The position numbers were made by a program, and so were the translations under genes. A DNA stretch of 63,819 nt, filler included, from Polymyxa betae A26-41 (Eukaryota > Protista > Endomyxa: Phytomyxea): NCBI GenBank assembly GCA_003693705.1. It is 6 parts of 6 records of this genome, joined end to end, with 100 filler letters (N's around TTAATTAATTAA, not from the genome) between each part and the next. Parts side by side here need not be neighbours in the genome. Positions count along the whole stretch, not along the records: positions 51,699 to 58,686 come from RBZT01000089.1; 5 more parts are not named here. The stretch is one strand, 5' to 3'. Under the pieces are notes generated by a model. The model made no database searches and was not told the origin of the DNA. It saw nothing but the letters and a program-made list of their open reading frames with translations. Positions 38,277 to 63,819 of the stretch are shown piece after piece. The first letter of the stretch is position 1. Each line of letters starts with the position of its first letter.

Positions 38277-38416
38277 ACTTGTATCCTGGCTGGATGTTTC
38301 CCAACAATGTTCTAATTACAACCTCGGAGTGCGCGGCTACTAAGTTTACATCGCCTCTTCGAATGTTCCATCACATCTGGTTCTAAGCATCGGGGCCCAC
38401 AAGTCACAGCTCCATC

Positions 38417-40149: not shown

Positions 40150-41084
40150 TCACCAATTGTCAGCAGGGTGATCAAGCCGATAATAACAGTCACTGAATAT
40201 CTTGAAAACAAATGCTTGATCGCGGCCTGGTCCACCAAACGGATTGTCGCCGAAGCGATCGTTGATCGACTTAACAATGTTGTTCAGATCTGATCGATCC
40301 CAATGGAGACTGATCTCCCGTACAACACTTCGGAACAGGCCTCTTAATTTAGCATCTTTAATAAATCGCTGGCAATTGCCATTTCCGACTGGAACTGGTC
40401 GAGTCACATAACAATAAACTGTAAAGAACTGCCAGTACTTGTCCGAAGAGGGCAATTTCATGATAACGGCAAAATTCTCTTGTTGAATTTCGTACAGCTT
40501 CGGGATATTAGAAAGCTGGTGAATCTGGCTTGCGATGTATTCCTTCACAGACAGAAATGTGTTAACAAGAGGATATTTCTGACAGAATAAGGCCACATCC
40601 AGAACATTTTTAGTGTTGAATGAGATCGAGTTCAAATTATCATCACATAATTTCGTCACGGAATCACATACAAGATAATCTGCGATCTGGGCCATGGCGA
40701 AGACCTCGGAGTGGCAACAACTATCGAGGTCGCTTAAGCCATACACGATTTTCAGAAATTTTAAAAAACCAAAGCAGTGCTGTGGGATTGCTCGCCCTTG
40801 AAGGGTTCCGGTATATCGATATCACGAATATCGATTTTAATCAGCGGTTTGGAGCCTTTTTCTGAAAGCGTGATGTTGGATTTTGATGGAGACTAGAGTA
40901 GAAACCGCTCCACATAGTCACAGCTGGGGACCAGTACGGCCCGATGACCGAAGTACTTGGTCCCATTGACCACCAGAATCAGGTCACTGCTGGAGGCAAG
41001 ATTGAACAGAGCACGGACGGTCTTAACAGCATTGAGCACGGCGCCCTGTCCGGATGTTTTGAAGGATCCTTTGAGGTTGGACAT
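40150..41084 (-). pseudogene. BTB/POZ paralogue 2 (stop and frameshifts)
   Basis: SDLILVVNGTKYFGHRAVL and AQIADYLVCDSV. TAG at about 40893 where paralogue 3 has TGG. Confidence 0.8.
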
Positions 41085-41410
41085 GATGCAGAGATCGTCC
41101 GATGTCGACGCTCGATGTTGTGGAATGACGCTTCGAGACTAGTCGACTCACGGACTCCGAGCAGCCACTCAGACAAATCTTAAGTTCGACTCTGCTATAT
41201 ACTCGACAGGTCTTCTGTTGTAAGTCCAACTCATCACCAAACGCGCGAGCATGGAGGTGGGCGGCTGCCCCCTGAGATAGAATCAACCTGAGCCCTTAGC
41301 GTGTGATCGTTTCAGCGAGACTAGTTTTGCAAACTTGAATACGGGATTAAGGCGTGGAATCATTTCGTCAAAGAGAATAACAAGGAATTTATTGATATCG
41401 TTCACTGCAT

Positions 41411-42357
41411 CTACCTATTCAAAGGGGACGGATTATCAAGCCGGTAGTAACAATCGTTCAATAACTTGTAGAGAAATGCTTGATCGCTGCTTGATCCACC
41501 AAACAAATTGTCGTTGGAGCCTTTGTTGATCGTTCTAACAATGTAGTTCAAATCTGATCGATCAAAATGGAGACTGATCTCCAGTACCACACTCCGGAAA
41601 AGCTCTCTGAATTCATCATCTTTGATGTCTCTCAGGAGACTGAATCCATGGCCGACGGGAACTTGTCCTGTCACATAACAATAAACTGTAAATAACTGCC
41701 AGTACCTGTTTGACGACGGCAATTTCATGATATCCGCAAAGTTCTCGTTTTGAATTTCGTACAGCTTGGGGATATTAAAGAGCAAGGGAATCTGGCTTGC
41801 GATGCATTTCTTCACAGACTGAACTGAAATGTATTAACAAGAGGATATTTCTGACAGAATAAGGCCACATCCAGAACATTTTTAGTGTTGAATGAGATCG
41901 AGCTCAGAATATCAGCACATAATTTCGTCACGGAATCACAGACAAGGTAATCTGCGATCTGGGCCTTGGCGAAGACGTCTGCCAGGCAATCACGATCGAG
42001 GTCGCTTAAGTCGTACAAGATTTTCAGAAATCTCTCAAAGAAAACCGCAGTGCTGTGGGCATGCTGGCCCTTAAAGCGTTCCGGGACATCAATATCAGGA
42101 AGATCGATTTCAATCAGCGGTTTCGATCTTTTTTCTGAAGGTTTGAAGTTGGATTTTGATGGAGACCAGAGTAAAAACCGCTCCACATAGTCACAGCTGG
42201 GGACCAGTACGGCCCGATGACGGAAGAACTTTGTCCCATTGACCATCAAAATCAGGTCACTGCTGGAGGCTTGATTGAACAGCGCCTGGAGGTCTTAACA
42301 GCAGTAATCACGGCGCCCTGTCCGGATGTTTTGTGAGATCCATTGAGGTTGGACATG
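41411..42357 (-). pseudogene. BTB/POZ paralogue 3 (frameshifts), tandem duplicate of paralogue 2
   Basis: VNGTKFFRHRAVLVPSCDYVERFLL. Nearly collinear with 40150-41084, including the 3' flank. Confidence 0.8.
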
Positions 42358-43390
42358 ATGTAGAGTGATGAGGAATGACGCGTCAAGACGGNNNNNNNNN
42401 NNNNNNNNNNNNNNNNNNNNNNNNNNNNNNNNNNNNNNNNNNNNNNNNNNNNNNNNNNNNNNNNNNNNNNNNNNNNNNNNNNNNNNNNNNNNNNNNNNNN
42501 NNNNNNNNNNNNNNNNNNNNNNNNNNNNNNNNNTTTCACGCTGCAATTCGTTATGTGACGAGTGAGGTCCCTGACTGGCAAGGAGCCGATTATACTCGCG
42601 CTATTCATGATGGCGATTCGAGGGAGCTCTACCAAGCTGCTCTACCAGAAGTCAGTCTTCCTCGAAACCTTTTTACCTTGAATATCATTGTAGAGTCTGA
42701 GCACAAAGCGGACAAAGAGAAGGTTTTCAACGGGTTTTCACAAGATCAAGATTGTAAAAACTTCAGCGAGTGCTTTTTGAGGCTGAATCACCAATCAAAC
42801 ACTGACCAACTTTCCACTTCATAATTCAACTGTTACACATTTCAATGCATTTTCGACTGAAGAGGAACATTGCTGAAATCTGCACACAATCAAGCACAAA
42901 CGGAAAAAAAATTGAGCGAACTTTTCTGGTTCCTGAGTACTTCTCTCAAATCACGAAACACTTATTTGCATGAGCAGCCTCTGCTTGGAATCTCCAATTT
43001 TGTAAGTTCGTGTGGAAATGCTCTTTTGATGAAAGATATCTGAATTTTTATCGAATGTTTTGATACTTTGGACTCAGGTGATCGGAATCCATTGGTTTTG
43101 TGAAGACAGAGGGTGGAAATCGCTCTATGTTGAGAAACTCTTGATCTAGGTAGAACTGAAAGCCTTTTAAAGCTATCGGAGCCAGCGAATTGAAAAAATC
43201 GAAAACGGATCTAAAAACTCCAGAAGCATAATATGGAGATTCAATTGGATTCATTATTGGACGATCGCCTATCGTATCATAATGACATTTTAAGGGATCA
43301 TGGTCTATGTCAATGCAGCACGAACCCCTGATAGAGAAACAACGAAGTTCAGGGCCGTAACTTGATTCGTTACAGCATCGTCAGCAACAG

Positions 43391-44438
43391 TTGGAAATAC
43401 AGAGATACGTGAAAGCAAATATTCACCATTTAATAGACAGGCGGACTGATAAAAACCAACGGATGAAATTAACCCAGGCAATGAATTATAAGGCGGCGGT
43501 CGGCCACCTGATATGGCTGCTTCATGCACGCCCGGATATAGCATATGCTGTCGGTGAAGTTGCCCGATTTGTTGACAGTCCCGGCCCTGCTCACTTCGTC
43601 GCGCTCAAACGAATCTTTCGTTATCTAAGAGGAACGACGCGATATGGTCTCTTGTTCAAGAGAGAAGGAGAGTGCGCAAAATTCTCTCTCCACGGATATT
43701 GCGACTCCGACTGGGCAGGTTGTGTCGATACTAGACGCTCGACTTCAGGTTTCAGTTTCTTCGTTAATAACTGTCTTTATCGATCAAAACGACAACTTTC
43801 CACAGCTCTGTCTTCTTGCGAAGCTGAAGTTCTTGCTTCGTCTCTGGCAGCTACCGAAGCCCTTTGGTTGCGTGATGTGCTAACTGAACTAGGTTTCTAT
43901 TCGGGAGGTCCTGTTTCTTTACATCAGGACAATCAAGGAGCTATTGCTTTTGATCTAAGTGAAGTTCCTCACTCAAAAATGAAACACATAGCGCTTCGCC
44001 AGAGCTTTCTTCGTGAACTTGTTTCTAATAATGTTCTTCTTCCGCTATATGTTTCCTCTGCAGACAACAATGCTGATTTCTTTACTAAGGGCCTAAATTC
44101 TTCACGATTTATTGATCTTCGCGAACGGATCGGTTGTATTACTCGTCCCGCTGCATTTGAGGGGGGGGGGAGTTGAGTAGTCTCATGCATCGTGACTCCT
44201 GATGTGTCACGTTTCTATTTGTTGCAAAGTCTCTGATCTATATAAACATCATCTTGTATTTCGCTAACTTTAACAACATCTTTGTCTTAGAATCTCTAGA
44301 AACTTAGTTCCGTGTAACTCCCAGCTCTGTGAAGTATGTTAAAGAATGTGGTGATGCTCTATAATTTGGCTCTTTTCTGATAAACTCCTTTTTTCTATTG
44401 CAGATTTTTGACTATGAGCCTGTGAGGTTGTCTCAACA
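43391..44438 (+). mobile_element. Ty1/copia 3' end: RT end, RNase H, polypurine tract and 3' LTR (44171-44438)
   Basis: RPDIAYAV, GYCDSDWAG, RRSTSG, ALSSCEAE, DNQGAI and ADFFTKGL. G-run PPT. LTR ends AGTTGAG...CTCAACA. Confidence 0.92.
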
Positions 44439-46382
44439 CTAAATAGAGGAATGTCCGCCATATCGGAACCCTGGATAGAAATGTGCGTTCACGGAGTAAT
44501 GATTAATCCCTATCTCAATGATAGATCAATCATGCATTTGTTGCGCTCACATCGAGATCATCAGAGACCATATTCTGCAGGCATATTGCACAATCTTGGT
44601 GAACGAATTTGGTCATCTAAACATATCGCTAAACATATAAATGCCAAGACTCATACTGGACCGGCCAGGAACCTTTATGTATTCTTCAGGATATTGAACA
44701 TTGAGGTCTATTGTGTCGTGTTCGGGGATATCATAGGAGCTATTGACGACAGAAATCCAGACCTGTGATAGAGTTTAATAGCTGATTATTACAGACAGCG
44801 ACTGAACTCTTGAAATCAGGAGAGAAGCAGCATAAGCCTCCTTGCTGATGTACATTGTTTCATTGCGGGTAATTTCCTGTAAGTCGAGTTCGGGCTTCGG
44901 CTGTATAGCTCGGATGTCTAACAATCATGAGAACGATATTGTCCGAGGCAGATCGGGCATTAGCCACGCCTCCTGAGCTCATGTTTCTAACAGTTCTCAG
45001 TAGGCGAATTGTGTGAATATTCCCATTATAAAATGGATGTTGAAGTGACAGCAGAGCCGGTGTAGTACCGAACCTCTGTAAGAACTCGAAGTGTTCCTCC
45101 GAGTCCAGTGACGTCATTCCCACTGTAGCCAGATCGAATAATTTCTGAGACTCGATCGTATCGAATCCGGTCTCTGAACCAACCAAATAGTCGTGGATCG
45201 CACTAAGTAACGATCGCTCCGAATATCCGAATTCTCTGCAAAACTCAACTCAGAGATTCGTAACAAAAATTGATAAAAGTCTTCACAGCTGCTGAAAAAT
45301 CATTTATCACGAAACATTTTACACCAAAATCAACCATCACATCATCGATGAATGATTCACAGAAGAACATGGAAAAGTAAATTAGATATTATGAAGAGTC
45401 AAAAAGAAAATGATAGTCAATGTGAACCTTGTATGAAGCAGGACCAGAACCCAACTTGCATAACCAGATCTTCCATGATTTAGGTTCTCGTTGTAATAGG
45501 AGGAATATTCGGAAATATTACGGAGAAAGCCCCAAATAATATCGGCAAGGCGAAACCGATATTGATAAGAGCGCGATTTGGGCAGAGATAGTTCCGGGAC
45601 GCGCCTGAATGCTCAATAAGTAGACTGTCCGAGCCATTCATTTCAATACGAATTGGAGCATTATAAGTTTTGAAAGAATTAAAAGGAGAATGGAACAGTT
45701 AACGGAACAATGAGGAGAAATAAAGCTCCATTCAGCATAAAACAGTCGCACATTTGGCAGCCGACAAAAGCGTAGGGAACCCAGCTGATGCGATCTGGGG
45801 CCGCCAGATGGTCCAGTACGTCGTGATGCGACAATTTCCCCGACAATAGGTCACGGACCAGATCTCGCAGACACATAGACCGCAGCTGATCTTTGTCGGC
45901 TTCTGTTTCCCTGTCATGTCAATATATTGAGCACAGATTAGGGTTGTCATGCGAGTAACGTTACTGAGCATCGACCTCGGGCAGTACGACCCGAATCTCG
46001 TCCAGCCAGCGTTCCACATCTGCCGACCCGAATCTCAATGTCCGCCAATTGTCTTCCGGAACTGCGCAGCAGAGAAGTTGAACAGCCCGTACAGTGGTCT
46101 CTTTCGATGCGAACATAGTCGCCGTCAGTCCCGGGAACAGGGCCAGTTCAACTGCGACTTCGGCGGTCAGAAATCGACGAACCTCGGTCCCGGACTTGGC
46201 CAGCATCGACAACGCCGGCCCAAACAGCCGAGCAAACACCAACGGGGGCAAATGCTGCGATTCGCGATGGACCAGGGCAAGCACGGCCTGGGGCCCGGAT
46301 TTGTGAAGAAATGCGACCCAGAGTGGCCAGGCAGGCCTATATGAAATAAGCGGAATTAAATTGGGGAATAAAGAGCCATGAG

Positions 46383-46546
46383 CATGTAATGTTACAGAAG
46401 TAAAATGAAATAACAGACTTAAATGTAAATGTTACACAGGTAAAAGGACATAGCAGACTCAAATGTATTGTTACAGATGTTACAGAGGTAAAACGACATA
46501 ACAGACATAAATGTAATGTTACATCGGTAAAATGTCATAACAGATT
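46383..46546. repeat. Minisatellite, about 39-bp unit, four copies
   Basis: Consensus close to AAATGTAATGTTACAGAGGTAAAACGACATAACAGAC. Confidence 0.8.
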
Positions 46547-48736
46547 AAACGCACCAGTCAATTGTTTTGGGGGAGGCTTTCTCATAATTGAAATCTTGAA
46601 ACATGAAAGCATCATAGAAAGTAGTGAGAGCGTTATCACGGTTGAAGCAGGGTGTAGAAAGAGCATTCGTTGATGTACGGGCACTGAAGTCAAAATCGTA
46701 TCAGAAGAATTCCGGGAAATTTTCGATGCCCATCAGCCTGTAGGAAATACTTGTAACATTTTGAATATTATGAACGGCCAGAGATGGAGATATCAATTGT
46801 GTGAGTGTTCCCGAACAATGCATGCCGTCAATATCATTGTTAACAAGTTTCATAACACGCAGGAACGTACTTTCCATCTGGCAAAAGCTGGCATTTAAAC
46901 CCTTCAGTATAAATGTCGCTTATACTGTATACAGATTGCTATTAGCTTCATGAAAGCTCGATTTGTTACATTTGTACTGAAATCGCTATGCAAAGTCCTC
47001 TCCGACCGAATTTACAGAATCCGTTCGGGATCATTGACTACAGAATCCTGTCTCTGGAAACAGGCTGTGATATCGACTTCCAATCTTCATAGATCACATT
47101 CATTGAGTTGATAGCCATACAGCGGTGATAAGGCAAACAAACTTGCTGTGTACCTGAGATCATGCCTTACTATCGACATCGAATAGACGGCCGCATTAAT
47201 ATGCACCCAATAAAGATCAGCTCTAATCATGCGTTAACCAAATGCAACACGCTCTGTTCAAAGCTCGTCCAAGGCGAATTAGGCGATCATTGGCTGTGAT
47301 AATAGAAATGTGCATTGGTTTGGTGTCGTCGAACAATTGCTCAAAGCGGAGTGCCAATCACTTTACTAACACAAATTCTATATCGCTCGCAAAAATTTGA
47401 ATCGTTTATCTCGGAAAAGTTGAAGCCAACAGATGAGGAAGCGGCCCAGAAAAAGATTTCAATCGTGGACTTGAAAATGATAGAAAATTGCTGTTGGTCG
47501 AAATGTCGCTCCGAGCGGAAGTTGTTTTTTGATCATGAATTACTCTGTACTATGAAATAACCAGCTGAAACAGCAGCAATAAATAAATCCGAAATACGAT
47601 CTCTGTAGCATGGTTTCTCATATTCAAAAAAAGTTGGGAAACTGGGTCAACGGAAGGAATGATGATTAATACAGTGAGAATGATCCAAAGGACAGAGTCA
47701 GAACCCTAACATGACTTGAAGGAGACTCTTCAGCTGTGTCTGTGACTGGGGTAGACCCCAAAAGGGCCTACTAATCGCCCCCTTCCTACCTCCGGAATCT
47801 GTCCATCTTCAACTTCCGGTTCCATTCGTTTTTCGCAACCTGTCACGTAAGTTATAATAATGTATCGTAACATCGTTACATCCGTACTGACCTTGGCCGG
47901 GTGCAGCCACCGACTTGCCTTTGAACAATATTGAGCCGATCTCCGAACAAGCGTTAATTGATGCCTCCGAACGAGCCTTAATTGATGAGTTTTTCCAAGA
48001 TCTGGATCCCGCTATTTAAGCAGAAGATACTCAACGTATGAGCGAGATGTTTGATGATGGCTCATGATGGCGAATTGTGGCACGTCACAAATCCGTCCTT
48101 CTTCATCGACAAATTACGTGAATGTTTGTTACAAGGTGGTGAACCAGGTCCAATTCAGTAGTACATGGTTTGTTTTCTTTTTAAAATCGAACTGGAACTG
48201 CTGTCAGCAAACCATAACGACACTGGAGTTGCTCGTTCTCAGCGAGACCCAAACTAACGGCTCTGAAGTTGTTGGAATTATATATTCAGTTTGCTTATAT
48301 TATAACTGAATAAACAAATCCGGCTGACAACCAGTAGAGGCCCAGCACAGCGGGCTGCGCCTTCGACCTTCCAGGCCAAGCGGACTGCAGTACGTCAATG
48401 GACGGAACAAAGCTAACAGCCTCTGAATCTGTGATACATACAGCGTATACACGACCTTCGAAAAATAGGAAGAGAAAAGTTTGTGGTGCGTTTTATATAC
48501 AATTCTGTAATAGAAGATGTACATAGATGAGAACACACAGCGTTACATGATAACAGATTGGCGTTGAATTCGCCCATAAAGATGACATATGAGAATGGCC
48601 AAGACGATAGCACAGGCAGTAGAAATGAAACAAAAGATGAGGACTTTGGTGGTAGAAAACCCTATAGACATATAATCAGATTTGTTCTCACACAATGAAA
48701 AAAAAGGGAAATCCATAAATCCGTCAAAAAAAACAT

Positions 48737-50343
48737 TCATAAATAGGTAAAGATTTCTGCGATAAAAAACATGCTGCGCTTACACGAGCTATGACCAGGA
48801 CCAACTTCATCTATTTCAGAGGTAACAACTGTTTGTGAGACGGAATCCGACTCGGTCGAGCTCATAGGTGCAGACGATGCGATCTCGAGACCAACTTCAA
48901 GACCGTCTGGATTGCGGTCGTTGTGAACGTCAAGGGCATCTGGACTACGGTCGTCGTGGACATTAAGAGCATCGGGATCATGGTCGTCCGAAGACCTGAG
49001 TTCATCCAATAAGTTCGCGATCTCCGAACCTTCAACAGCATAAGAACGGGCAGTACGACCATAATAATCGCGAAGGTTCAAATCAATCAGTCCCTCAATT
49101 GACAGCAGCTCACGAACGGCCGCGGCATTGCCGACCTGTACGGCTGTGTGCAGAACCGGGCAATATCTGATAGAGGCGAGACCGTGGAGCACTCCGCCCC
49201 AGAACGGCGTCTTCAGCACCGCCCGTAAGAGGCCGTGCTGGCTCTCGATGTCGATCAACTCCAGTATGATTCCGTGGATCCCGCCCAAGTCCCCAAATTG
49301 GAAGTTCTCGCACTTCATGATGGCGGTGATCATGTCGAATTGTTCCCTCTGGATGAGGACTTTAATGTCCCTTGACAGCGCATCGGCCGTCCCAGTAACG
49401 AAAGGCAAAATAGGCTGCAATTCGATGAACGTGATATCGGTGAGTTTCAAATTCGGCAGATAAAAGGGAACTCCGAGAAAGTAGAAGTTCTTGATGAGAT
49501 TTAGGCGTGATCGAAATAATGGATTTGCAATAAACCTGGAAACGCATTCTGCTATCAGATAGTGATCGTCAAAATCTATTTCGTCAAATCGTCCCGGAAG
49601 ATCAGCTAGAATGAAGTTGTCATAATAATTGCTGACAAATTGCTGGATTTCTTCGAGAATATTCTCAGGAATACTGGCCGAGGGCGTCAAGCCGTCCCCC
49701 TCTGGAACCAGCTGCAAGATAATGCCCAGAGCCTCTCTTTGGGAAATTTCACTCATGTACAAAAATTCCGATAATGAGATGGATATGATCCAACCAGGAA
49801 TCAATCTCATAACTGATGGGATCCGTCCGATTCCACTCTTAGTGAATAGATCCAGTACGGCGTCCGGTGAAGAAAGCGCTGCCATCTGGAGACGATTCAA
49901 GAAGAGAGCAGCAACTTCGTCTGTGAAGATGTCGGAGAGAACAACGGCCGGAAGAGCGAGCAGCTGCCGCAACGTCAGCAGGAAGTCGGCGCCCGACGAC
50001 CGCATTCGGATTTCGGTCCGCCACACATCGGGAGTCCGGCCCCGGACTTGTTCGTAGCTTCTTTTGTTGACCTGGGCGACCTTTGAAGCCAGTTCATAAC
50101 CGAGCTGCGTGCTCAATGATCAGATCAAGCTCCAGATCATGTCCGGGCACATCCGGCGACCCCATGGACGGGGCCAGTACGACGGGGCGCACCGATGACA
50201 GAGTCGACTGCAGCGATGATGCCAGAACCCGTCTCTATGTTGACTTCACCCTCAGGGACGCGACCATGGCTGGGTTCGGTGTCGTTCTGGGTGGCGGATG
50301 CCGTCACGGATATGAGAGCAGCGATCACAATAACAATATTCAT
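48737..50343 (-). CDS. Putative secreted ankyrin-repeat protein (two or more exons), effector-like
   Basis: Signal peptide MNIVIVIAALISVTASA. A 56-nt GT-AG intron at 50105-50160 joins the two ORFs in frame. Ankyrin repeat VLHTAVQVGNAAAVRELL...DLNLRDYYGRTARSYA. Three 11-aa PDALxV repeats. Confidence 0.72.
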
Positions 50344-53300
50344 GATCACTATCAGTGATCTGACAATAAAAGATGATTGACGTGATGACGGGATCGAGAC
50401 TCGAGAGCAGGTTTTGCAATCTCCGTCACGGACTAACAGACACCCCAAAATTATTTTCATTGTTTATTCAGAGAATGAAAAAATGGTGCCCGCAGAAAAC
50501 CCTAAAACATGGCATTAAATCTTCCGCGTGTCTCTAACGATACCAACATGGTTTATCGCATACTCTCATTAAGTGTTTATCAATGGCTGTCTACTCCTCA
50601 AAGAAAAAAACCACACCGAAAACATCGCTTCCAAAAACGTCGCTCTCAACAGAAATCGCTATAGGCTGATGCGACCAAAACACCTGCAAGTCAAACAGCA
50701 CCATACCACACACACCGCACAAATTAGACTGACACTGTCACACTCTCTCACAGTGTCGATAAACCAATAATCGGACACAGCCTCAAGTTCATGATCATTC
50801 TGAAACGCTTTGAGAGGGATCAATCAATGTCCGTAGATCGCAACGATTATCGGAACGATTTTGAATGATGAGAGAGGGATTTGTCACATTTCCATGCGAG
50901 GAAATGCTGCTACCATACCTATTTGAGGTTCTCACAAATCCTGCTGTAGGGCCGACCCGAATTTAACAAATTGAAAGTGTGAAATTTATGATCAGCTCGG
51001 AAATTGGTAGTCGGGGGCATTGATAGCTATCAAGGCAATGCCAATGTACTATCGGCCTTTCGCTTAGGTAACAGCGCCGACTGTTGACAAAGATCGACAA
51101 ACTAGACGAGTGCAATACAAATCTGGATCGATTGATCTGGGAGCTTTGATAACGATTAATCAGAGAGCGCAACAATTGCAGGATTGATCTATTAATGGAG
51201 ATAGGGATTAATCATTTCTCCGTTAACGCACATTTCTTTAAAGGGTTTAAGATAGCTGCCATTTCTATATCGACCCTGCTACGTCTGCGACCGGTCGCAG
51301 TTTTAACTGCGTGCGCGACCTCCTATATAGGCGGTCGCATACGTCTTAGATCTACGACCACGTTCCCCACTCGTGACATTTATGCCCCCGATCCCGTCTG
51401 AAGTCATGTTCTCTCGTGTCGCTAACCTCTTTAGCTTTTCCAGCACGGATGTGAGGAGCGTAGAAGTCGACTTTAGTGATGGACCGCTCTCGCCTGATCT
51501 CGGATCCATGCCTGAAGATCACGATGTAACGGAATGCTCCGCTGATCCCCTCCCTGAAAAAAACATATCTCCAGTTAAAGTGATTTGTGCTGGGGAAANN
51601 NNNNNNNNNNNNNNNNNNNNNNNNNNNNNNNNNNNNNNNNNNTTAATTAATTAANNNNNNNNNNNNNNNNNNNNNNNNNNNNNNNNNNNNNNNNNNNNTT
51701 GAGCTACAGAAGGACCCATTAGTAGGAATCATGTGTTTCGTCTTATATTAGGGCGCAAACCGGTTATGCCGTTATTCTCCACAGCTGTGAATAAACCAGA
51801 GGCTTTCCGAGCCTGTTTTGTCTGATATGCGGCATCACCTTCAAGAACATCAAGATGTATCTGAAAGGTGGCTCTTCCTATGTTGGACATCCAGAATATT
51901 CTCCTCAATCTGTGTTTCAGGACATATGTAGCTTCTAATGCTACAAAAACTCCCCGCAAATTCTCTTTCCTCTAATCATTGGACGTTGGTAGACTTTTTG
52001 GATGAAGCGTATTTCTCGTCAGTTCGGCTTCGCCGTGACGCAACCTGTTCATGAATCTCTTTACATTTATGAGTCATAATCGAGGCCCAGCTTCGACGAC
52101 ACATTATCCTGTATTAATTTCATAATAGAATCGGGTTTAAATCACCGTAATCGATTCTTGCGTTCTTAGTAGAATTCTCGTGCTCGAACTAAAACCCTAA
52201 CCCCAGTTCAAGTACGCTACATGGTAAGATTCGAAACATCTCAAATATGAAGAGGCAACAGGCATCGAAATCGTGACAAAAAAGTAAAAATTTCGTTTTG
52301 ATTAATGTATGCCGAGGATAGAGCGTACTCTGGTCCCCGCGACTCAAAAATTATGAAGTCGACCCCAGCTTGTGCTGAAGCCATATAGCTTCACAGACAC
52401 CCTGCGTATATCACAACGCGTGCAGTTGGGCCGCTCCACTATAGCCCACGGTCCTTAATGATCGACCATCAAGTAGCTGAACTACTGAGCACCTTCAAGG
52501 TAAGTATGAGTCTGATCCAGGGCATAACACGCACCTGCTATAATGAACTCACCAATCGAAACGATTATGGGACCTTTTACGTACGAGGCGCACTTTTTTG
52601 CTTCCACTCACCATAGCCTCACTGTCTGTGTGTGTGTTTGTCGCGCAGTAATGGCTCAGACGATACCGCAGCTGAGCGCAGCCAGAGCTGCAATCAAACG
52701 AGCAAAGCTATCCACGACAAGCGAAGGTAGCCTGCAACAGAAGCGACATGATTTGTATGCTCATATCGGGGAGCCCAACATCGACAGAAACCCTAACCCT
52801 AGCTAAGCCCCTTAGATGGGAAAGGGGTTCGTCAAGAAATACGTTGAATTTTTTTCTGAAAAATCTCCATTCTCAAGGGAAACATGCATGAAGCCATGCC
52901 CGGGTCGCCCCCGTGACAGGGGATGTAAAATACGTTTTGTCATTTTCAACAACGATGAGCAACCGTGTGGCTCGTACGCAGTCCGTAAGAGCCATGAGAC
53001 GTCGTAGCGGTGAGAGGTGTGTCGTGGAGATCACGAGTTGTCAAGAGTCGCCTTCGGTTCATGTGACCAACCGAACCTACAAACAAATAACAGATATTTG
53101 AGAAATAAACTGCTAAATCGAGTCAGAGCAGCGACTTTTGGACATGCAACTGCAGATGTCCAGTGCCTTTTCGGTGCGTTTGCCCACTTTGAGGACCGAA
53201 ACTTCAAAAGTAATTTTGTAACATCCATCAATTTGAATTTAATGTGTAGAAATTTAAATACATCGCCGAATCCCAAGGAGTGCGAGTTGAAATTTTTGGA

Positions 53301-53582
53301 AATAACTTCGAAAGAAGAACAAAAAACACGAGTTTTCTCCATAGTAAATTTAGGACGGCACTTGCAAATCTGCAAACTCTTCCGAGAACAAACTGACTTT
53401 GTCGTTTTTGAGCTTATTAGATTGGCACAATCTGAAAAGCGACAAAAGCCGAACGTGGCGACTATGTATTATATCATGATGGGAGAGTTGGCGAATAACG
53501 GATTACTGTAGAGAGATGAGCTACGGGGATACAATTGCGTCTATAGGAAACCCTAAATAGGAATCTGCGACCGATTCACACA

Positions 53583-56066
53583 ATGGCTGACGACTGTGTC
53601 GATTATCGTTCGGCACTGGCCGATGCCCTGCGTCGTCGGCATGGGCGCACGATCCCGACCCGGTTCCAGTACGAACAGCACGGGCCGCCGCACTGTCCTG
53701 AGTTCCGAGCGACCGTCGATCTTGGCGATGCTGCTGGTGGCCTGTTCAGAGCCGACACCTGGTCTAAGACAAAAAAGAAATCGGAACAGAGCGCCTGCAG
53801 GGTTGCGCTCAATTCGTTACCAAATGGGGCTGCGCTTAATTCGTTATCAAATGGAGGGAGGGTGGCTGCGCCTGCAACCTTTAACTGGAAAGGACAATTG
53901 CAAGAATACTGTATGAAACATTATCCCGGTCAGCGGATCAAGTATTCGGTAACGAAACACGGTCCGGATCACGCGCCCACGTTTCACGCCACTGTCGCCA
54001 TCGAGACGCGAATGTTTTCGTCGAGCCCTGATCACAGATTCCTCCGCAGCGCCGATGCCGAAGCCGGCGCCGCCCGCGTCGCATTCGACTCGCTACGATC
54101 GAACCCTAATACCCTAACCCTTGCATCCTTGATCCAAGTCATTCCGGAAACAGTTCGACCGGACTCCAACGCGTCACAGCACGAGGCCGTGATCCACACG
54201 GAGTCAGCGACGGCCTCGGCGCCGCCCCTACTGCTGTCTACTCCGCGTCTCTATCAGATCGCGATGTATCGCGCAGCCATGCAACGTAACATCCTGTGCT
54301 GTCTGCCAACCGGAACGGGAAAGACACTCATCGCCTGTCTCGTCATTAAACGTATGCACGATCTCAACCCCAACAAGCAGATCCTCTTCCTCACAGATCG
54401 TCTTCCGCTCGTCGACCAACAGGCGCGCGTGATCGCGCGCGAAACCGGCCTCTGCGCGATCTCGTTCCGCGGCGGTCGCAAAAGCTACGCCGACGATCTG
54501 CGTCGCGCTCAGGTCGTCGTCATCATCGCGGCGTTGTACGAGAATTTGATCCGTGAGGGGGCAGTACGGGTGGCGGACGTGTCCTTGGTCGTGGTCGACG
54601 AGGCCCATCACGTCACCGGGCAGCATCCGTTCTCGCGCCTTCTCGTGAACCATTTCTGGCGGCAGTCGCGCCGCGATCTGCACCCGAAACTGTTCGCGCT
54701 GACGGCGTCGCCGGCGGCCGAGCGCGACCTCTTCTATACGGTCGTGGGCCTGGTCGACCTGCGCGATCGGATTCGTGGCGTGATCGTACGGCCTCGTGGA
54801 GCCGTCCTCGACTCCATGAAGGGCTACGTGAATGCGTCGCATCGATCGCATCCGGAGATGATCCTCGTGAAGACGTCGCGCGCCGAAGCTCTGTTCTCCG
54901 GCTCCATCGTTCCGCTGTTCGCGTTCAAATGGGGCCGGAAGGGTCCGCCTGCGGCTGTTGATAACAGCGAAGATATCGATTTAGACAATGACGCGTACTA
55001 CGATCCGGCCAGAATTCCTTCCAAGAAAATCGCCGTGGACGACCACGATGATGATGAATGTTGCGAGACGTCGCTGTCGAGGGACGAGATCATTTCTATC
55101 ATCTGTGACGCCATCCTCAAAGATTGCGTCGATTTCGGCGCCGCAGTCGCCTTCGATCATCTGGCGGAGTTGAATGAGCGATATGGGGGGCCGCTCTCCC
55201 CGGACCAGGTCCGCAACGCTCGTCCGCTCCTCGACCGAGTCCGTCCGACGCCGCGCACCAAATTCGACGAGCTCGTCAAGTTTCTCACGAACAACGCCGC
55301 GCCCGATTCTCGCGCGATCGTCTTCGTCAGCACGCGTCGTACTGCCCACGTCCTGCGCGATCTCCTTGAACAAAGCGGCATGAAAGCCGGCGTCATCACC
55401 GGACATGGAGCCGGCGGCGACGGCGGCATGAGCCACGCCATGCAGAGCGACGTAATTGACGCCTTCCGCGAACGTCGTATTAATCTGCTGGTCGCCACGA
55501 CTGTCGTTGAAGAAGGGTTTGACGTGCCCGGCTGCAATCTGGTCATTCGTATAGATCTTCCCGCAACCGTCACCGCCCTCGTGCAGAGCCGAGGCCGCGC
55601 TCGCCGCCACAACTCGCGGTTCGTGATGATCGCCAGCGAGCGCGAACAAGTCCGATTCAATCAGCTGCGTAAACGCGAGTCCATGATTGAGACGGCGATC
55701 GACGTCTTGGAGCTGTCGGAGCTGTCGAAAATCCCGCGCTCCATCGTCTATAACGATTCGTTCGTCTGCACGCTGAACGTCCAGCTGACGAAGACGTTCG
55801 TGCCGTTGCTGTCGGCGGGCAGCTCGGCGGATCTCGTCCGATTTCGGACGACGGCGGACGGCTTGCAATACAAATCGGTGCTGAGCGTTGATTGCCGGAT
55901 CGGATCGGATCCGAAGCGAACCGGAATGATGCAGGTGGCGGCGATCGGCCACGGACCGACGAAGAAAGCCGCCCAGGATTGCGCTGCGCGTCATCTCGTC
56001 GAAAGCCATTTTATTCTGGCGTCGTTCGTGCACCTGTCCAATAATCGACTTCAGAACTGGAAGTGA
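53583..56066 (+). CDS. RIG-I/Dicer-family DExH helicase with two N-terminal dsRBDs and a C-terminal dsRBD-like domain, 827 aa
   Basis: dsRBD1 GPPHCPEFRATV...KKKSEQSAC and dsRBD2 WKGQLQEYC...GPDHAPTF...AEAGAA. Helicase motifs PRLYQ, LPTGTGKT, DEAHH, LTASP, IVFV, ATTVVEEGFDV and QSRGRAR. C-terminal GHGPTKKAAQDCAA. AAACCCTA 35 nt upstream of the ATG. Confidence 0.92.
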   Translation: MADDCVDYRSALADALRRRHGRTIPTRFQYEQHGPPHCPEFRATVDLGDAAGGLFRADTWSKTKKKSEQSACRVALNSLPNGAALNSLSNGGRVAAPATFNWKGQLQEYCMKHYPGQRIKYSVTKHGPDHAPTFHATVAIETRMFSSSPDHRFLRSADAEAGAARVAFDSLRSNPNTLTLASLIQVIPETVRPDSNASQHEAVIHTESATASAPPLLLSTPRLYQIAMYRAAMQRNILCCLPTGTGKTLIACLVIKRMHDLNPNKQILFLTDRLPLVDQQARVIARETGLCAISFRGGRKSYADDLRRAQVVVIIAALYENLIREGAVRVADVSLVVVDEAHHVTGQHPFSRLLVNHFWRQSRRDLHPKLFALTASPAAERDLFYTVVGLVDLRDRIRGVIVRPRGAVLDSMKGYVNASHRSHPEMILVKTSRAEALFSGSIVPLFAFKWGRKGPPAAVDNSEDIDLDNDAYYDPARIPSKKIAVDDHDDDECCETSLSRDEIISIICDAILKDCVDFGAAVAFDHLAELNERYGGPLSPDQVRNARPLLDRVRPTPRTKFDELVKFLTNNAAPDSRAIVFVSTRRTAHVLRDLLEQSGMKAGVITGHGAGGDGGMSHAMQSDVIDAFRERRINLLVATTVVEEGFDVPGCNLVIRIDLPATVTALVQSRGRARRHNSRFVMIASEREQVRFNQLRKRESMIETAIDVLELSELSKIPRSIVYNDSFVCTLNVQLTKTFVPLLSAGSSADLVRFRTTADGLQYKSVLSVDCRIGSDPKRTGMMQVAAIGHGPTKKAAQDCAARHLVESHFILASFVHLSNNRLQNWK

Positions 56067-56881
56067 ACAAATCAATTAATGTTTTATTTAAAATATCGAA
56101 CTTTGCAGATCGCTGAATAAAAATGTCAATAAAACTTCTGCTCATTTTCAAATAGCGCTCCGATTGCAGCGCTTCGATCAGAAATCATTTCGCCGCTCAG
56201 CGAACGTCTCCGTGACATGCAACAACCGAACTTCAGACAGGGGGCTGCACTACCCGGGTGATGGCCACCCATCCGGGATCATCTCCGACAGACCGCATTT
56301 CACTTGTCACTTCGGAGCATTAACTGAACGCCAAAGAGTCAATGGCTGATTTCGGCCATCACCATATCTTGTCACAAATCCACTCCAGAAAGCTCGTAAT
56401 GAGTAGCGCGCAGTATTTTATTCCACAGGGTTTTTGGAATTTTCTCTCTTTAAGTTTCAAATAGTGCGTAAATCCCACGATCATTTATGACAGAAGGATT
56501 ATGACTGAATGACTGTTTGATGGCTGATTATCGTCACATGATATTTGCGCTTATTTTCATTTTTTTTTGGAAGTCCTGGTCTGTTCAGAGTGTCAATTAT
56601 TCGCATTTTACGATAACAGAAACAGTCGATTTCGATTGTTTTGGGCCCATTTTTACGAGCACAATTTCGATCGCAGCCGTAGCCAGTATCGTCATCCTTC
56701 ATAGGTTTTGTTGAATAATAAACTTAAGTCCGTACTTCCGGCTACCTGTAAAACGCCACAATCATGTGTCTTGCACTCTGAGAAATCATGTCAATTCCAA
56801 TCATCAGCTGATCTCTTTCGAATCCAATCTCAAGTGTATTCTCACCAGGTTGACCATTTTGAGTTCACAGCCCAACCCTTA

Positions 56882-58402
56882 TCAGGGTGAAGCGGTTAAA
56901 AACAAGAGCATATCATCAGCCCGAATATGATGATTATGCAAAGAACATTGTTCAGGATTGGAAGCAAACGGCCCGGTTGATCTCATCTTGTCGATTTTGT
57001 GATCGGTAAAAGCTCTAGTTGTGAGCTGCAAACGATCACAAAGCAGATTGAAAGGCGCGTTTATTTCCAGATTTTGGAAAACAGAATTCTCTCGCACATT
57101 ACTCAATTCGTTGAAGTTTGCTGGGACGAAGGGTGTCATGAACATCCCGCCCAGGAACATCATCAATTCTGTCTTTCACATATTCCATTGAATCTGAATC
57201 TGGGCATTGAATGCTATCAAACTCGATATCATGGCGACATAGAGACCAACATTCTAAGAGATGGTCAATAATACTGAGGGGAGCCCCAAGATGAACAGCC
57301 CTTTTCAGCAGACAGCTCGCCTTCTGGGCCATTTCAAAGCAATTAATCCGCGCGGATTTCGCTATGACTTGAAATGAAGAGAACTCTTTTGCCTCTATGA
57401 GTTTCTCAAGCAAAGAAATTCCTCCGCGGTTTCTATGAAGCCAGTTTCTTGGATAGAATGATCCAAGCATGATGCGAAGGATTTCGCTTTTGCCTTCCGA
57501 TATCAATCTTTTCACGAGCCCTTTAAAGCGGCCGAGCGATGATGGCGCTAGAAAGGCGACGATCTTGGCGAATTGTTCGGCCGAGACCGGGACCTCGTCC
57601 GATTCGAGGTAACGACCATAATACATCCGGATCTGTTAATAATCCACTTGTTGATAATTGCCGCAGCAATGCATCATGAATGGTTCGATCCGGTCCAGCA
57701 AGAACGATTTTATGAAGGCCGAAAATATCCGTAGCGAATGCAGACGCCCAGTTTTTGTTTCGAAAATTGCATTCACCGCCATCGTTCCTACTAAAATTTT
57801 CCAAAATAATTTCGATCTCTGGGTGGACATCAATGCGACTGTGACGTTTACGTAGAGGAATGCCGAACCCATTGAATAGAAATCGTGCTTGGGTTCGTAT
57901 TGTCCACGTTTTTCAATTAATCGGCTCAGATCTTCCTCCTGTGCGAATTGGTCAAGAATCAATTTTGGCTCTCTTTGTTACTGAAGCCGCCGTAGGCCAA
58001 CTACAGTACATACTGAGATATGATCCAGCAGCAAGATCTTGAAGAAGATCCGCCTGGAAAATGTCGATAAATTCGCCGATTATAGATGGGAATTTCCCTT
58101 CGATAATAGTTTGATCTACCAGTTGAATGGCTCCCTGGAAAGAGATGCGATTTTGAACTATTGGAATGATATCTGGGTCCAATTGCGCTCGAATGACGAG
58201 CTGATTCATAACACTGAATGTATGAGACTGCTGAAATGGGAAATCGGAGATCCGACCGAATAGTCGTGCGATGCAGCAAGGCACATGATATAGATGATGG
58301 AATCGGTGCGACACGGGCGATAGGTTATAGAGCGTGGAGGCATCGCATGATGACGCGATCTCATGGATCAGGACATCTGGGACTTCCATCGCTTTCGACA
58401 TC
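56882..58402 (-). pseudogene. F-box protein pseudogene with an ankyrin-like helical C-terminal part
   Basis: F-box EVPDVLIHEIASSCDASTLYNLSPVSHRFHHL and ankyrin-like LLKRAVHLGAPLSIIDHLLE, split over several frames. Confidence 0.55.
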
Positions 58403-58485
58403 ACGATATTAAAATTGGAGAGGGACTGACGAGTCGCTGTATCTCGGCGGTGGCTCGGCTTCCAATACGCAACTGTGCTTGCACT

Positions 58486-58680
58486 TGTTGGTGCTGCCCC
58501 GCCAGACGAACGTCCAGCACTTGAACCTGAAGAATCAGCCATAATTGGTGACACAGAACGTACACTAAGAGAGAAGGCTCGTTAGTTAGTCACAAAGAAG
58601 AATGAATATCTGTATTCATATAATCGACATTCATCGGTCATAGTTTACTGCGAATATTCATCAACAATCTCCCCCTTTTG
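58486..58680 (-). mobile_element. Probable LTR (58486-58666) with adjacent polypurine tract
   Basis: Minus strand reads AAGGGGGAGAT-TGTTGATG, with TGTTG...CAACA termini. Confidence 0.55.
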
Positions 58681-58786
58681 CAGGAANNNNNNNNNNNNNN
58701 NNNNNNNNNNNNNNNNNNNNNNNNNNNNNNTTAATTAATTAANNNNNNNNNNNNNNNNNNNNNNNNNNNNNNNNNNNNNNNNNNNN

Positions 58787-61700
58787 TGTCATGCACAAGA
58801 CCCATCAATCAAGGCCCATCCGGCGCGGCCTCCGATCCGACAGTCGCGTGCCTTGAAATCATGAACACGCACCCGGACTTTTACTCCTGTCTTGTTTCTC
58901 ACTTTCATTTTCATTCATTCTCAATACAAGCTCTGGTTCCAACCGTCCAGACTTTCGTCTCTCATCTCGTACATTCTTAGCTCTGTGCTTGACACTTTTT
59001 TTGGACGAGTCATGAACACGCAAGAGAATCAGCCAACAAACGGGGACCAGTCTCCTGTTGCAACTTCGAAGCCTCCGCAGCACGGCGCAGCACGCGAATC
59101 TTTACTGCAGCGTATCTACATCGAACAAGAACGAATCGCGAACATCTCTAATCAGCTGAACGACCTTCTCATTGAAGATTTTAACACTTTATCAAGCATT
59201 CAGCAACGGAATCACAAATCTCGCGTCGCATCTCTGAACGAGGAGGTTTCTCGGATTACAAGACACATCAACATGCTCCGAAATGCTTATGACGCTCTCT
59301 CGCCCGTCGATCTCGGACAGGCAATGCCCAGCGCACATCAAATGCAGCCCCGAGCTGGTCCTGCCCATTCGGCCCCGGCCAACCATGCACGACGTCCTGC
59401 CTAACTACCCCGATTTAAGCGACCCACCGCCACGGAGCCAAGGCCCGCGGACGATTTCCTGTCCGAATTACGGCGCCGACTCCGAGCGGACTCTTATCCT
59501 GAAGAACGCTACTCCGAAGCCATCGCAGCCTGCTGTGATACGGCTGAAGGCGACTGGGTCACCGAAAATCTTGTCGGTAAAGGCTATACATGGGATCAAG
59601 TACGTGAACGCTTTCTGAAGCACTTTGTTGACGACGATATCTGCCATCACTATGAACAGGAGCTCATCCATTGCTCTCGTGAAACTGGTGAAGGATTACT
59701 TTCTTTCGGAGATCGATATCTATCTCTCATGAAGGACGCGAACAAGGACGCGGACAAAATCTTCGAATATACCAAGGAGTTCATCTGCCTACTACCACGA
59801 GGCGCTATTAACAAGCTTAACGGCATCAAAGCGGGCAATCCTGACAGGATCAATACGGTCCGAAAAATGGTAAACGCGCTCACTTTATACTGCTCAGCTG
59901 ATCGAACAGCAAACGCGAATCGTAAAAACGGCAGCAGCTCCAATGACCAACACAAGGCCAACCAGAACCAGCCCAGTACGGCCAACACCAACCGCAACCG
60001 GGCACCGAAACCGAACAAGCAGCAGAAAACTTCGACCTGCGACTTCCACGGAGTCTGCGGACATTCTACTGCGGAATGCCGCCGCCTCAACCAGGGATCC
60101 TCCGCTCAGCCCACACAGAGCGCGAACGATAGTCCCACCACTCCATCCCCTTCAACCAAAAACGGTAATGTTACATGTTACGCATGTCAACGACCCGGAC
60201 ATCTCGCCTCGAACTGTCCGAGCCGTCAACGCTCGACATCATCGGCACCCTCTGTCAGCTCGACGACGACCACTTCATCACGATCTCAGACTCGCAACCC
60301 GACGACTCATACCAACCATCACATTGAGACTCCGCGCAGCCCGATACGGACATGATCGACGACGGCAACGACGAAAACGTCATCTCTGCGCAGGGATATC
60401 ACCCCCTCTTCGACCAAGTACAAACCATGCACAGTTCTGAAATGTCTCTCAAGGACACCAGCCAATTCCGCTCGGATTACTCTACCGCAATTTTCTCAAC
60501 TATTTTCCTAGATGGAACCCCGGTCGAAGGCTATGTCGATACGGGAGCCTCCAATTCCACCATATCTGAGGATGTTTTCGATAGGTTCTCGGAAACCACC
60601 CGAAAGACACATCGGCTCGCCAGATCAGGGCAGATCATCTCATTAGGCGTCGACGGGCACTACGCTCCTCGACCCGGCTCTGCTATAGTTCCCGTCGTTT
60701 ATGGAGATCGTCAATTCAACTTCAAATTCGACATCGGCAAGCCACCCAAAGGTATCGCAGCCATTGTTGGCCGAGACCTACAGGCCATGCTCGGCATCAC
60801 CATCACGGGGCTGCGCCTGCCCAAAAAGTCCGCCAACGTCGCACCAATTGTGGACCCTACTCCCTCTCTCTGTGACCCGGATAAGGCATCTCCGCATCCT
60901 CTCTCTTCAGATCCACGATTGTTGAAAGCAATTTCCCTGAACCAGTCCATACCTATGAACAGTTTCTGTAATCTACCAGAAGCCATTGTGTATTTGGAGA
61001 CCGGCGATAAAGCGCCCATATTTCGACGCCAATATCCCATTCCGCATTCCGTGGTCGACGCCCAAGTTCAGCAATGGACCGACGACGGCAAAGTTACGGA
61101 CGCACCAAGGGGTTGTCAATGGAACCTTCGGTTATTAGTGGCGTTGAAAAAGGATCCTGTCACTGGCGAACGCAAACCCGGTCGCTTGTGTATCGATCCT
61201 CGAGCACTTAACCTGCTATTGGCTCAGGACCGTTACCCGCTACCGTTAGTGTCCGAGGTTTTTCAGTTCCTTTCAGGGAAGTCCATATTCAGTGCTATCG
61301 AATTGGAGAAGAGTTTTCTTTAATTACCTTTTCACGAACCACATCGGCAAAACTTGTCTTTCACATGGTCCGGGCGACACAAGATGTTCGTTGGAACTCC
61401 GTTTGGACTGAAACCTACTTCTTCTGTTCTTCAACGGACTATGTGTCCCATTTTAGACGGATCCAGTTCCGCCATGCCATTTCTTGACGACGTACCAGTC
61501 GGTTCGTTATCACCAGAGGAGCATCTTGAAGACCTGGTCGACACGATAGATCGTATAGCAAGTGCCAACCTACGCATTAATCTCAAAAAGTCGCACTTTT
61601 TTCGACCCTCGTTACATCTTCTTGGCCACACCTTCTCGGCCGACGGCCTTTCGATCGACAGGCGCAAATTAGTCGATGTCCAGAACTGGCCAACACCACA

Positions 61701-63819
61701 GTCCGGAAACGACATTGAACGATACCTCGGTCTCATTAATTACTTCCGGGACTTCATTCCCTGCTATTCAACTATCGCCGCACCGCTGGAAGCCATGCGG
61801 AAACTCCCATCAATCAATCCATCGAACTGGACCCCAGATCGTCAAAATGCATTCGAGTCTCTCAAGGAGATCTTGCAGCAGGGTACATTTCTGCACTTTC
61901 CGGACTTTGACGATGAGTTTAGAATTGCAACTGACGCTTCGGACGTCGGCATTGGCGCAACCCTCTATCAATTGCGCAACAACTCCGTCGAGGACACGAC
62001 GGACAACCGGAAGTACAATCTGTTTGCCGCCCGCGCACTTCACCCATCGGAGCGAAATTACTCCGCGACCAAAAAGGAGTTACTTGCAATCGTTTTTGCA
62101 CTCAAGCGCTTTCATTATTTCGTATGGGGGCGACACTTTAAACTTTTCACAGATCATCGCGCACTCTCTTTTCTGTTTACGCAGAATGATCCATCACCTC
62201 TTATGGCGAATTGGATCGACGTTATCCTCGACTACGATTTCGACATCTTTCACCGACCCGGAATTTTGAACATCCTTCCGGACGCCCTTTCACGTCTCTT
62301 TCCAGCACCACAAGTTCACCATTCAGCTCCACCAGATTCTTCAGCACATCAACTAGATGCTACTGCAATTCCGAGCTCCGCGATTCCGGAACATCTCCGT
62401 CGCGAAACCATCGAACGCGCGCACCTCCACGGACAGCTACCGTTTCTCGTCTTATCGAAGAAGGTTCCGTTTGGCCATCTATGCGGACAGATCTCACCGA
62501 ATTCATCAAATCCTGTACAGCATGTCAGCGTTACAACATCGTCAGCATAGGGTTCCATCCCTTAACTCCGATCACTGCCAGCCAGCCAATGGATCACATT
62601 GCGATTGACACAGCGCTTTCTTTTCCAACATCAGAGATCGGTAACAACATTCTTCTAGTTGTAGTTTGTGTTCATACACGTTTCTGTTTCTCCGAGCTCT
62701 TCCCGACAAAACTGCGGTTTCTGTTGCTTCTGCATTATTCAACATTTTCATCGACTTCGGATTCCCACGAATCATTCAATCTGACAACGGAACGGAGTTC
62801 GTTAACCAGCTCATGCACGCAATGACAAAAGTAGCCAGCATCGATCATAGGCTCACTACCAAATATCATTCCCGAGCAAACGGCCTAGCCGAGCGTTTCG
62901 TTCAAACGTCCTGTCGTGCAATCCACAAATTACTTGAAGCCGAGGACCGCCAGTGGGATCGTTATGTCGCAGCCGTACAGCTCTATATGAACACAAAGAT
63001 CGCGTCAGTACACAAATCCGCGCCGTTCAGCGTCATGTTCGGGCGAAAATCAAACCCATTTATCGACTACCAACAGAATTCGTCTTTTTATCCGCAGTCA
63101 TTCACGACTGAGGAATTTCTTCCATTCCGAGACCGTCTTCAATGGTTTTCTGACGTCCTGTTTCCGCCATTTCGGAAAAGCTCTCTGGTAACGCTGCTCG
63201 TGCCATAACTAACTATGCCAGACATCATCGCATTTTAAAAGACCCATTTCCAGCGGGCTCTTACGTCATGGTTATCGATCCGACACGCTCCAACAAGAAC
63301 CACCCATATTATGAAGGACCTTACAAGGTTCTCCGCCGCACTAAGGGTGACAGTTATCAACTTCTAGACAGCGACCAGACGCTCTATCAACGTGCTGTCG
63401 CTCCATCGCAAATGAAGCTCGTCTCAAAGGACCCTCGCAACGACCCCCTATATTTTGTTGCTGAGCGGATTCTAAAACACCGTGGGCCCCCTTCTCGACG
63501 TGAATACCTTGTACGGTGGAAGAGCATGAGCCCGGACGAAGACTCCTGGGAGCCTTTTACCAGCTTTGACGACCAGCAGATCATCGCGGACTATTGGTCC
63601 CGCACTTCTTCAAATTCACGTTCCATTTCGGGGAAGGGTGATGTCATGCACAAGACCCATCAATCAAGGCCCATCCGGCGCGGCCTCCGATCCGACAGTC
63701 GCGTGCCTTGAAATCATGAACACGCACCCGGACTTTTACTCCTGTCTTGTTTCTCACTTTCATTTTCATTCATTCTCAATACAAGCTCTGGTTCCAACCG
63801 TCCAGACTTTCGTCTCTCA
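58787..63819 (+). mobile_element. Near full-length Ty3/gypsy chromovirus: 5' LTR 58787-58994, gag, PR, RT, RNase H, IN, chromodomain, PPT, 3' LTR from 63642
   Basis: LTR TGTCA...TGACA, with both copies identical over the visible 178 bp. Motifs CYACQRPGHLASNC, YVDTGAS, LCIDPRALN, FLDD, TDASDVGIG, SDNGTEF, YEGPYKV and YLVRWK...SWEP. PPT GGGGAAGGGTGA. Confidence 0.96.

Follow-up and report, generated by a model that had tools for sequence, protein, structure and literature searches.

The only characterised relative of the protein described here is HelF of Dictyostelium discoideum, an 837-residue protein that is drawn as dsRBD-DEXDc-HELICc, with one dsRBD only, in the domain diagram of PMC4894637. 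In the available text of PMC2175303, deletion of helF renders Dictyostelium hypersensitive to RNAi, and the Skipper retrotransposon is not up-regulated on loss of the gene; miRNA processing is given as normal after the deletion (PMC4894637). The Dicers of Dictyostelium are described as lacking a helicase (PMC4894637), and RDE-4 and DRH-1 are reported to work jointly in DCR-1 cleavage (PMC11095941). The helicases of RdRPs have been published as separate from those of Dicers (PMC4791657), and only a few endogenous RNAi suppressors are known (PMC4319951). A literature search whose scope stopped short of the primary HelF paper found no mechanism for HelF. By its title, that paper, from 2006, reportedly presents HelF as a suppressor of RNAi that acts in the nucleus. 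No mention of HelF was found in the available main text of a preprint on amoebozoan miRNAs (10.1101/2023.10.19.562841).

The window, the whole stretch of 63,819 nucleotides that was analysed, consists of joined contigs with N-flanked TTAATTAATTAA linkers at 18174, 29318, 36449, 51599, and 58687; the linkers were seen directly at 51599 and 58687, and the same N spacing is present at the other three positions. Within the 7-kb piece 51699–58686, a single-exon ORF at 53583–56066 (+) that is free of stops encodes a HelF-family dsRBD-dsRBD-helicase-dsRBD protein of 827 residues, and an in-frame stop lies directly 5′ of position 53547. Since the gene's piece extends over 51699–58686 only, neighbours outside it are possibly not truly adjacent. 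A DNA run, X1, possibly the one from which the window derives, tiles most of this piece, and a fraction of 0.98 of the sampled words recurs in the DNA run of a second study. The gene has no introns, and its GC content is 59.5% (GC3 70%); five ORFs close by that do not belong to transposons have 43–49%, and the whole window has 46.7%. Colinear transcript-like contigs with an overall span of 53453–56142 (+) come from X3 and X5, runs of two further studies whose RNA or DNA nature is off record. The X5 contigs cover 53453–56103, and the X3 contigs cover 53511–56142 with two short uncovered gaps. Both sets pass the stop codon with neither gap nor joint and end 37–76 nt 3′ of it, near two AATAAA hexamers (56116 and 56128, together 56116–56133, +) that are candidate poly(A) signals. 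Unspliced contigs that run through the stop and end near these hexamers are a weak hint that the gene is transcribed as an unspliced mRNA. Among the runs with the gene, X20 is the sole one recorded as RNA and contributes one 246-nt contig that falls within the ORF, and X19 has two short ones; no contig joint touching the ORF was found in the four runs compared. Within 45000–63819, no Rfam matches were found.

On the same piece, a dispersed repeat lies ~1 kb 5′ of the gene (52003–52583) and shows elevated depth, sequence variants, and numerous loose ends in all four runs compared, and convergent neighbours, an ORF with a weak F-box match (E 0.033) and a second ORF, occupy 57099–58581 (−), where they are overlain by short X3 contigs. 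An ankyrin-repeat ORF (48737–50119, −) and a short ORF in which a stretch resembling a signal peptide was recognised by eye (50137–50463, −) are found on a contig piece other than that of the helicase; together (48737–50463, −) they possibly represent a secreted ankyrin protein in two pieces. Secreted ankyrin proteins are typical of phytomyxid root parasites. An ORF at 34924–35535 (+) with Viral_Rep and RNA_helicase Pfam matches is likely an endogenous fragment of the Rep gene of a CRESS-DNA virus. A Ty3/gypsy LTR retrotransposon (58787–63819, +) contains gag with a zinc knuckle, protease, and RT-RNase H, together with integrase and chromodomain ORFs recognised by eye, and is interrupted by stops and frame changes. 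Its 178-nt terminal repeats (58787 and 63642) do not differ from each other, which suggests a recent insertion, and the best named matches of its pol are to early-diverging fungi (45–49%). A cluster of BTB/BACK-like paralogues, some of them broken, spans 38387–42824, and a search with a BTB protein led to generic clusters; neither this outcome nor that for the Ty3 pol is diagnostic of the host lineage. Transposon debris at 1–30000 and 43361–44176 includes integrase-like, Helitron-like, non-LTR RT, Ty3, and copia-like pieces as well as Myb/SANT, DDE_Tnp_4, and DDE_3 sequences, some recognised by Pfam and the rest by eye. Two tRNA-Asn genes are located at 30141 and 33919, and an array of five copies of ~39-nt units at 46384–46549.

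The 827-residue protein has a modular architecture, encoded throughout on the + strand, in which a helicase core is flanked by dsRBDs at both ends. Pfam places dsrm on two stretches (E 3.7e-18), DEAD at residues 225–378, and Helicase_C at 560–676. The first dsRBD (residues 8–80; 53604–53822) contains a GPxH loop and a KKxS motif; the second (residues 101–172; 53883–54098) retains GPxH and has lost the lysines of KKxA. Hel1, or RecA1 (residues 218–392; 54234–54758), carries the Q motif and motifs I, Ia, II (DEAH), and III (TAS), with LPTGTGKT at residue 241, DEAHH at 339, and LTASP at 373. A Hel2i-like helical insertion, without a Pfam match and with an acidic loop of low confidence, separates the two RecA domains (residues ~400–555; 54780–55247). 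Hel2, or RecA2, with motifs IV–VI (ATTVVEEGFDV at 638–648, QSRGRAR at 668), is followed by a long helix at residues 686–711, which we take to be pincer-like (55254–55715 in all). A divergent third dsRBD that retains KKAA occupies the C terminus (residues ~731–807; 55773–56003). Pfam assigns no CARD, CTD (PF11648), NTD, ERCC4, HhH, or HA2 match to the protein. A six-frame profile scan of the whole window found no RNase III, RdRP, DUF283, or CTD, and the best PAZ match in it has an E value of 0.12 and lies ~27 kb from the gene.

The assignment of the C-terminal domain draws on several lines of evidence. Its match to Pfam dsrm (E 0.026) is under the Pfam cut-off. With a query-free HMM built from the C termini of nine relatives, the tail scores 16.8 bits, a value reached by none of 500 shuffles. 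The AlphaFold model, computed from an eight-sequence alignment (mean pLDDT 66, compared with 32 for a single-sequence model), folds residues 731–807 into an α-β-β-β-α arrangement with a pLDDT mostly of 61–84 and two loop dips to 47–48; dsRBD2 is modelled badly, with a pLDDT below 50 across 122–199. The C-terminal domain of the HelF clade shows 97% alignment to canonical dsRBDs and 69% to DUF283, and dsRBD3 is closer to a canonical dsRBD than to DUF283. The first matches of the helicase in both sequence and structure searches of the PDB are Dicer and RIG-I-like helicases. The top Foldseek matches are ancestral Dicer helicase structures, and the fold matches the RIG-I, MDA5, and DRH-1 helicases with Z scores of 38–42 and FANCM with a Z score of 40, in a structure search dominated by the helicase part rather than dsRBD3. 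The first-pass annotation had described a stand-alone helicase of the Dicer/RIG-I class, with two N-terminal dsRBDs and a third dsRBD-like end but no PAZ, RNase III, CARD, or CTD, and had proposed a role on dsRNA in RNA silencing. The description is borne out in each part, including all of the helicase motifs that it quoted, and the proposed role is most likely correct.

The relatives of the protein were collected with HMMER (phmmer) against 1.84 billion representatives, and the best 150 of 276 matches at E ≤ 1e-30 were considered. Eight of the top nine are amoebozoan proteins: the best match is from Phalansterium (E 4.6e-102), and the others are from Cavostelium, Polysphondylium, D. purpureum, D. 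discoideum (DDB_G0294407, which is helF; PMC4894637), Synstelium, Heterostelium, and Cavenderia. The remaining one, P0011, is a tandem RLR. One to three N-terminal dsRBDs are present in seven of the eight amoebozoan relatives, the Synstelium entry beginning at the helicase. A C-terminal dsRBD is detected at E < 1e-3 in six of the eight and is weak in HelF and the Synstelium protein; the relatives that have it also stop shortly past that domain. With HelF as the query, the 827-residue protein ranks 10th of 160, immediately behind the remaining clade rows, and the two proteins are ~40% identical over two helicase segments. Word-based homologue searches returned six and seven Hef/FANCM/Dicer proteins, including weak matches to archaeal Hef, and missed the HelF relatives that full HMMER recovered; the matches in the ESM Atlas are generic eukaryotic helicase clusters. 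No dsRBD was found at any of 103 loci from metagenome (best 80 of 343 loci, 9 of 64 parts) and viral (23 loci) scans, in which the top four loci are zinc-finger helicases or helicase-RdRPs and an archaeal Hef protein is the best query for 76 of the 103.

Trees were calculated from the two RecA domains, with FastTree for all 160 rows and with IQ-TREE for 68 of the 160 (321 columns), chosen to cover every group; most of the 92 omitted rows are additional Dicers, RdRP helicases, and zinc-finger helicases. The sample was drawn from matches to the query and includes four RLRs, none of them from a vertebrate, and neither DRH-1 nor DHX9, and group labels were taken from our own HMMs, with a Pfam check for a subset. 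IQ-TREE recovers a nine-row HelF clade that includes the 827-residue protein (100/97), with the Phalansterium protein as its sister (95/84), and FastTree agrees on the clade (0.987). Placement of the protein with Dicer, RLRs, or Hef/FANCM is rejected by AU tests (p 0.0008, 0.003 with four RLR rows, and 0.009, respectively). Taken with the missing domains, namely PAZ and RNase III for Dicer, the Zn-binding CTD, CARD, and NTD for RLR/DRH, and ERCC4 and HhH for FANCM/Mph1/Hef, these values speak against membership in the three groups. The HelF clade stands beside the helicase-fused RdRPs with weak support (85/66 in IQ-TREE, 0.979 in FastTree). Membership of the protein in the HelF clade is much more secure than any functional reading. 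The HelF-like amoebozoan helicases are a clade defined in this analysis around HelF, and no curated family model for them was found. HelF is thereby extended from one species to a clade that spans dictyostelids and further amoebozoans, in which a C-terminal dsRBD is conserved although the published HelF diagram does not show it.

The suggestion in the first-pass annotation that the architecture is unusual is not sustained: the layout is common to HelF and proteins of at least six other amoebozoans (one lacking the N terminus), and it is no surprise because HelF was described in 2006. Three outcomes had been named there as counting against its reading; an architecture already described was largely what was found, whereas splicing onward is not seen in the contigs and placement with FANCM/Mph1 is rejected. 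dsRBDs also occur on related helicases elsewhere (Mallomonas P0062, P0105, Balamuthia P0020, Pelomyxa P0064, and Spongospora P0166), so dsRBD-helicase fusions recur. P0020 and P0166 are likewise stand-alone proteins, in which a Cys-rich domain precedes the helicase and a dsRBD forms the C terminus. Neither belongs to the HelF clade (P0093 stood in for P0166), both retain the threonine discussed below, and animal relatives have up to ~11 zinc fingers in place of the Cys-rich domain.

Alignment columns were screened for residues that are conserved elsewhere and lost in the HelF clade. Two columns passed, 315 and 564, of which 315 is the strongest. All 10 HelF-clade rows, two of them near-identical D. 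discoideum entries, have isoleucine at this position (Ile315, ATC, 54525–54527, + in the 827-residue protein). Outside the clade, threonine is found in 148 of 150 helicases (Dicer 47/48, RLR 4/5, RdRP helicase 45/45, zinc-finger helicase 18/18, Hef/FANCM 8/8, other 26/26), and isoleucine in one, a Dicer row. Mapping through P0011 and the full-length numbering of 7tnx equates column 315 with T347 of human RIG-I, which presumably falls in motif Ib/Ic. The T347A substitution in RIG-I reportedly blocks translocation. It also leaves the helicase domain deficient in RNA binding, with no signalling (PMC4733034; PMC13371114). Motifs I, II, V, and VI show no other departure from the norm in the HelF clade, where I, II, and VI are invariant, and the remaining RNA-binding motifs are preserved. 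With motifs in this state, the 827-residue protein probably still binds and hydrolyses ATP. The invariance of the isoleucine in such divergent proteins suggests selection, though it represents one inherited event. A literature search covering neither the 2006 HelF paper nor a 2011 thesis found neither this exchange nor the HelF family as a published subject; the exchange would thus be a new point, which the paper or the thesis could already note. An invariant swap at a residue of known function in RIG-I is, in addition, a direct feature that is cheaply testable in Dictyostelium.

The reading that we favour, with a probability of roughly one half, is that this HelF-family protein holds dsRNA away from Dicer and RdRP, its motor gripping only weakly, and so damps RNAi. 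The three dsRBDs would bind dsRNA, with dsRBD1 and dsRBD3, which retain their lysine motifs, providing the grip, and the degenerate dsRBD2 perhaps binding protein. Replacement of the RNA-contacting threonine by isoleucine would weaken the hold of the motor on RNA, from which a clamp on dsRNA is predicted rather than translocation along it. Occupied dsRNA would be withheld from Dicer and RdRP, and RNA interference would be dampened. We infer the weak translocation, the competition with Dicer and RdRP, and the HelF-like role of the 827-residue protein; HelF-clade proteins are likely dsRNA clamps rather than alarm sensors. Counting against a clamp, nothing is missing from the ATPase motifs or from the remaining RNA-binding motifs, such that translocation may persist with the dsRBDs compensating, and one Dicer row shares the isoleucine. 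The identity to HelF of only ~40% and the unchanged Skipper level on loss of helF also weigh against the favoured reading.

In a positive role, the protein would act like RDE-4 and DRH-1 in one chain, the comparison drawn in the first-pass annotation, as an ATP-hydrolysing sensor or loader that feeds viral or transposon dsRNA to a helicase-less RNase III. Such a role accords with the intact ATPase motifs, the fold match to the RIG-I, MDA5, and DRH-1 helicases, the joint action of RDE-4 and DRH-1, and the helicase-less Dicers of Dictyostelium. The protein nevertheless falls outside the RLR clade, lacks CTD and CARD, and has lost the equivalent of T347, and its sole characterised relative regulates RNAi negatively (PMC2175303); we regard such an activator as unlikely. 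Similarly doubtful is a remodeller powered by ATP, by which RNA-protein complexes would be stripped or unwound and their RNA passed on for decay, for example by Xrn1, RNAi being damped by turnover and not by clamping. The invariance of motifs I, II, and VI in the HelF clade would suit a remodeller, as would a thesis title in the reference list of PMC4894637, 'HelF und sein Interaktionspartner Xrn1', since Xrn1 as a partner suggests RNA decay and not simple sequestration; the lost threonine speaks against processive movement.

A broader reading, which goes beyond dsRNA clamping and which we consider improbable as a whole, is that the HelF family is an old clade of disarmed RIG-I/Dicer-type helicases, of which the present copy was transferred into a non-amoebozoan, host-associated eukaryote. 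The Thr-to-Ile exchange would have abolished the hold of the motor on RNA, and the dsRBDs at both ends would make these proteins dsRNA decoys that set the threshold of RNAi. Nested as it is among amoebozoan sequences, the gene may have been acquired by transfer, in view of its intronless structure and high GC content relative to nearby ORFs. A run that carries the label of a different organism (X12) also contains the DNA, in patches and with little depth, as would be expected of a eukaryote living in association with a host. One phytomyxid root parasite is described as having neither Dicer nor RdRP and as having two three-dsRBD proteins (available text of PMC13547706). If the host is not an amoebozoan, the gene would be a transferred RNAi regulator, and were the decoy reading true, the copy could mute the silencing that the host directs at its transposons or RNA viruses.

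It is very unlikely that the protein is the helicase-bearing half of a split Dicer, as the first-pass annotation had also entertained, or that the ORF is the 5′ portion of a longer Dicer gene with further exons. The order of a helicase followed by a domain of dsRBD fold recalls Dicer helicase-DUF283, and ancestral Dicer helicases are the best Foldseek matches, but the helicase is not Dicer-derived by the AU test, the C-terminal domain aligns better to canonical dsRBDs than to DUF283, and RNase III and PAZ are absent from the window. Further against it, the X3 and X5 contigs are unspliced across the stop and end shortly beyond it, and the clade relatives with a C-terminal dsRBD likewise end right after that domain. 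A DNA translocase of the FANCM/Mph1/Hef type, with which the protein shares a fold and weak word-based matches to archaeal Hef, is hardly conceivable given the AU test, the three dsRBDs, and the absence of ERCC4 and HhH domains.

Comparison with the known systems places the protein closest to HelF. DHX9 and MLE, which similarly carry tandem N-terminal dsRBDs on an SF2 helicase, belong to the DEAH/RHA family, which has an HA2 domain and different helicase motifs. The 827-residue protein, in contrast, has no HA2 and a motif VI of the sequence QSRGRAR, and DHX9 was not found among the 60 best PDB matches shown; Dictyostelium Dhx9 has two dsRBDs (PMC4894637). Dicer shares with it the succession of helicase and dsRBD-fold domain and provides the best PDB sequence and Foldseek matches; the main differences are the lack of PAZ and RNase III, the canonical-dsRBD-like C-terminal domain, and the separate clade. 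RLRs and C. elegans DRH-1 have the same Hel1-Hel2i-Hel2 fold and motifs I–VI, whereas the 827-residue protein has dsRBDs at both ends in place of CARD, NTD, and Zn-binding CTD, has lost the T347 equivalent, and belongs to a separate clade. The helicase-fused RdRPs (the Dictyostelium Rrp type and the oomycete and cnidarian RDRs) form the weakly supported neighbouring clade, and a few of them also have N-terminal dsRBDs (P0062, P0122); they differ in keeping the threonine in all 45 cases and in their RdRP domain. HelF itself (DDB_G0294407, Q86L44) is of similar length, falls in the same helicase clade, and shares an N-terminal dsRBD, a Dicer/RLR-type helicase, the Thr-to-Ile exchange, a C-terminal dsRBD-like end that is weak in HelF (9.5 bits), and the absence of RNase III and RdRP. 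A difference lies in the number of N-terminal dsRBDs: one in HelF, two in the 827-residue protein and Cavostelium P0009, and three in Phalansterium P0008.
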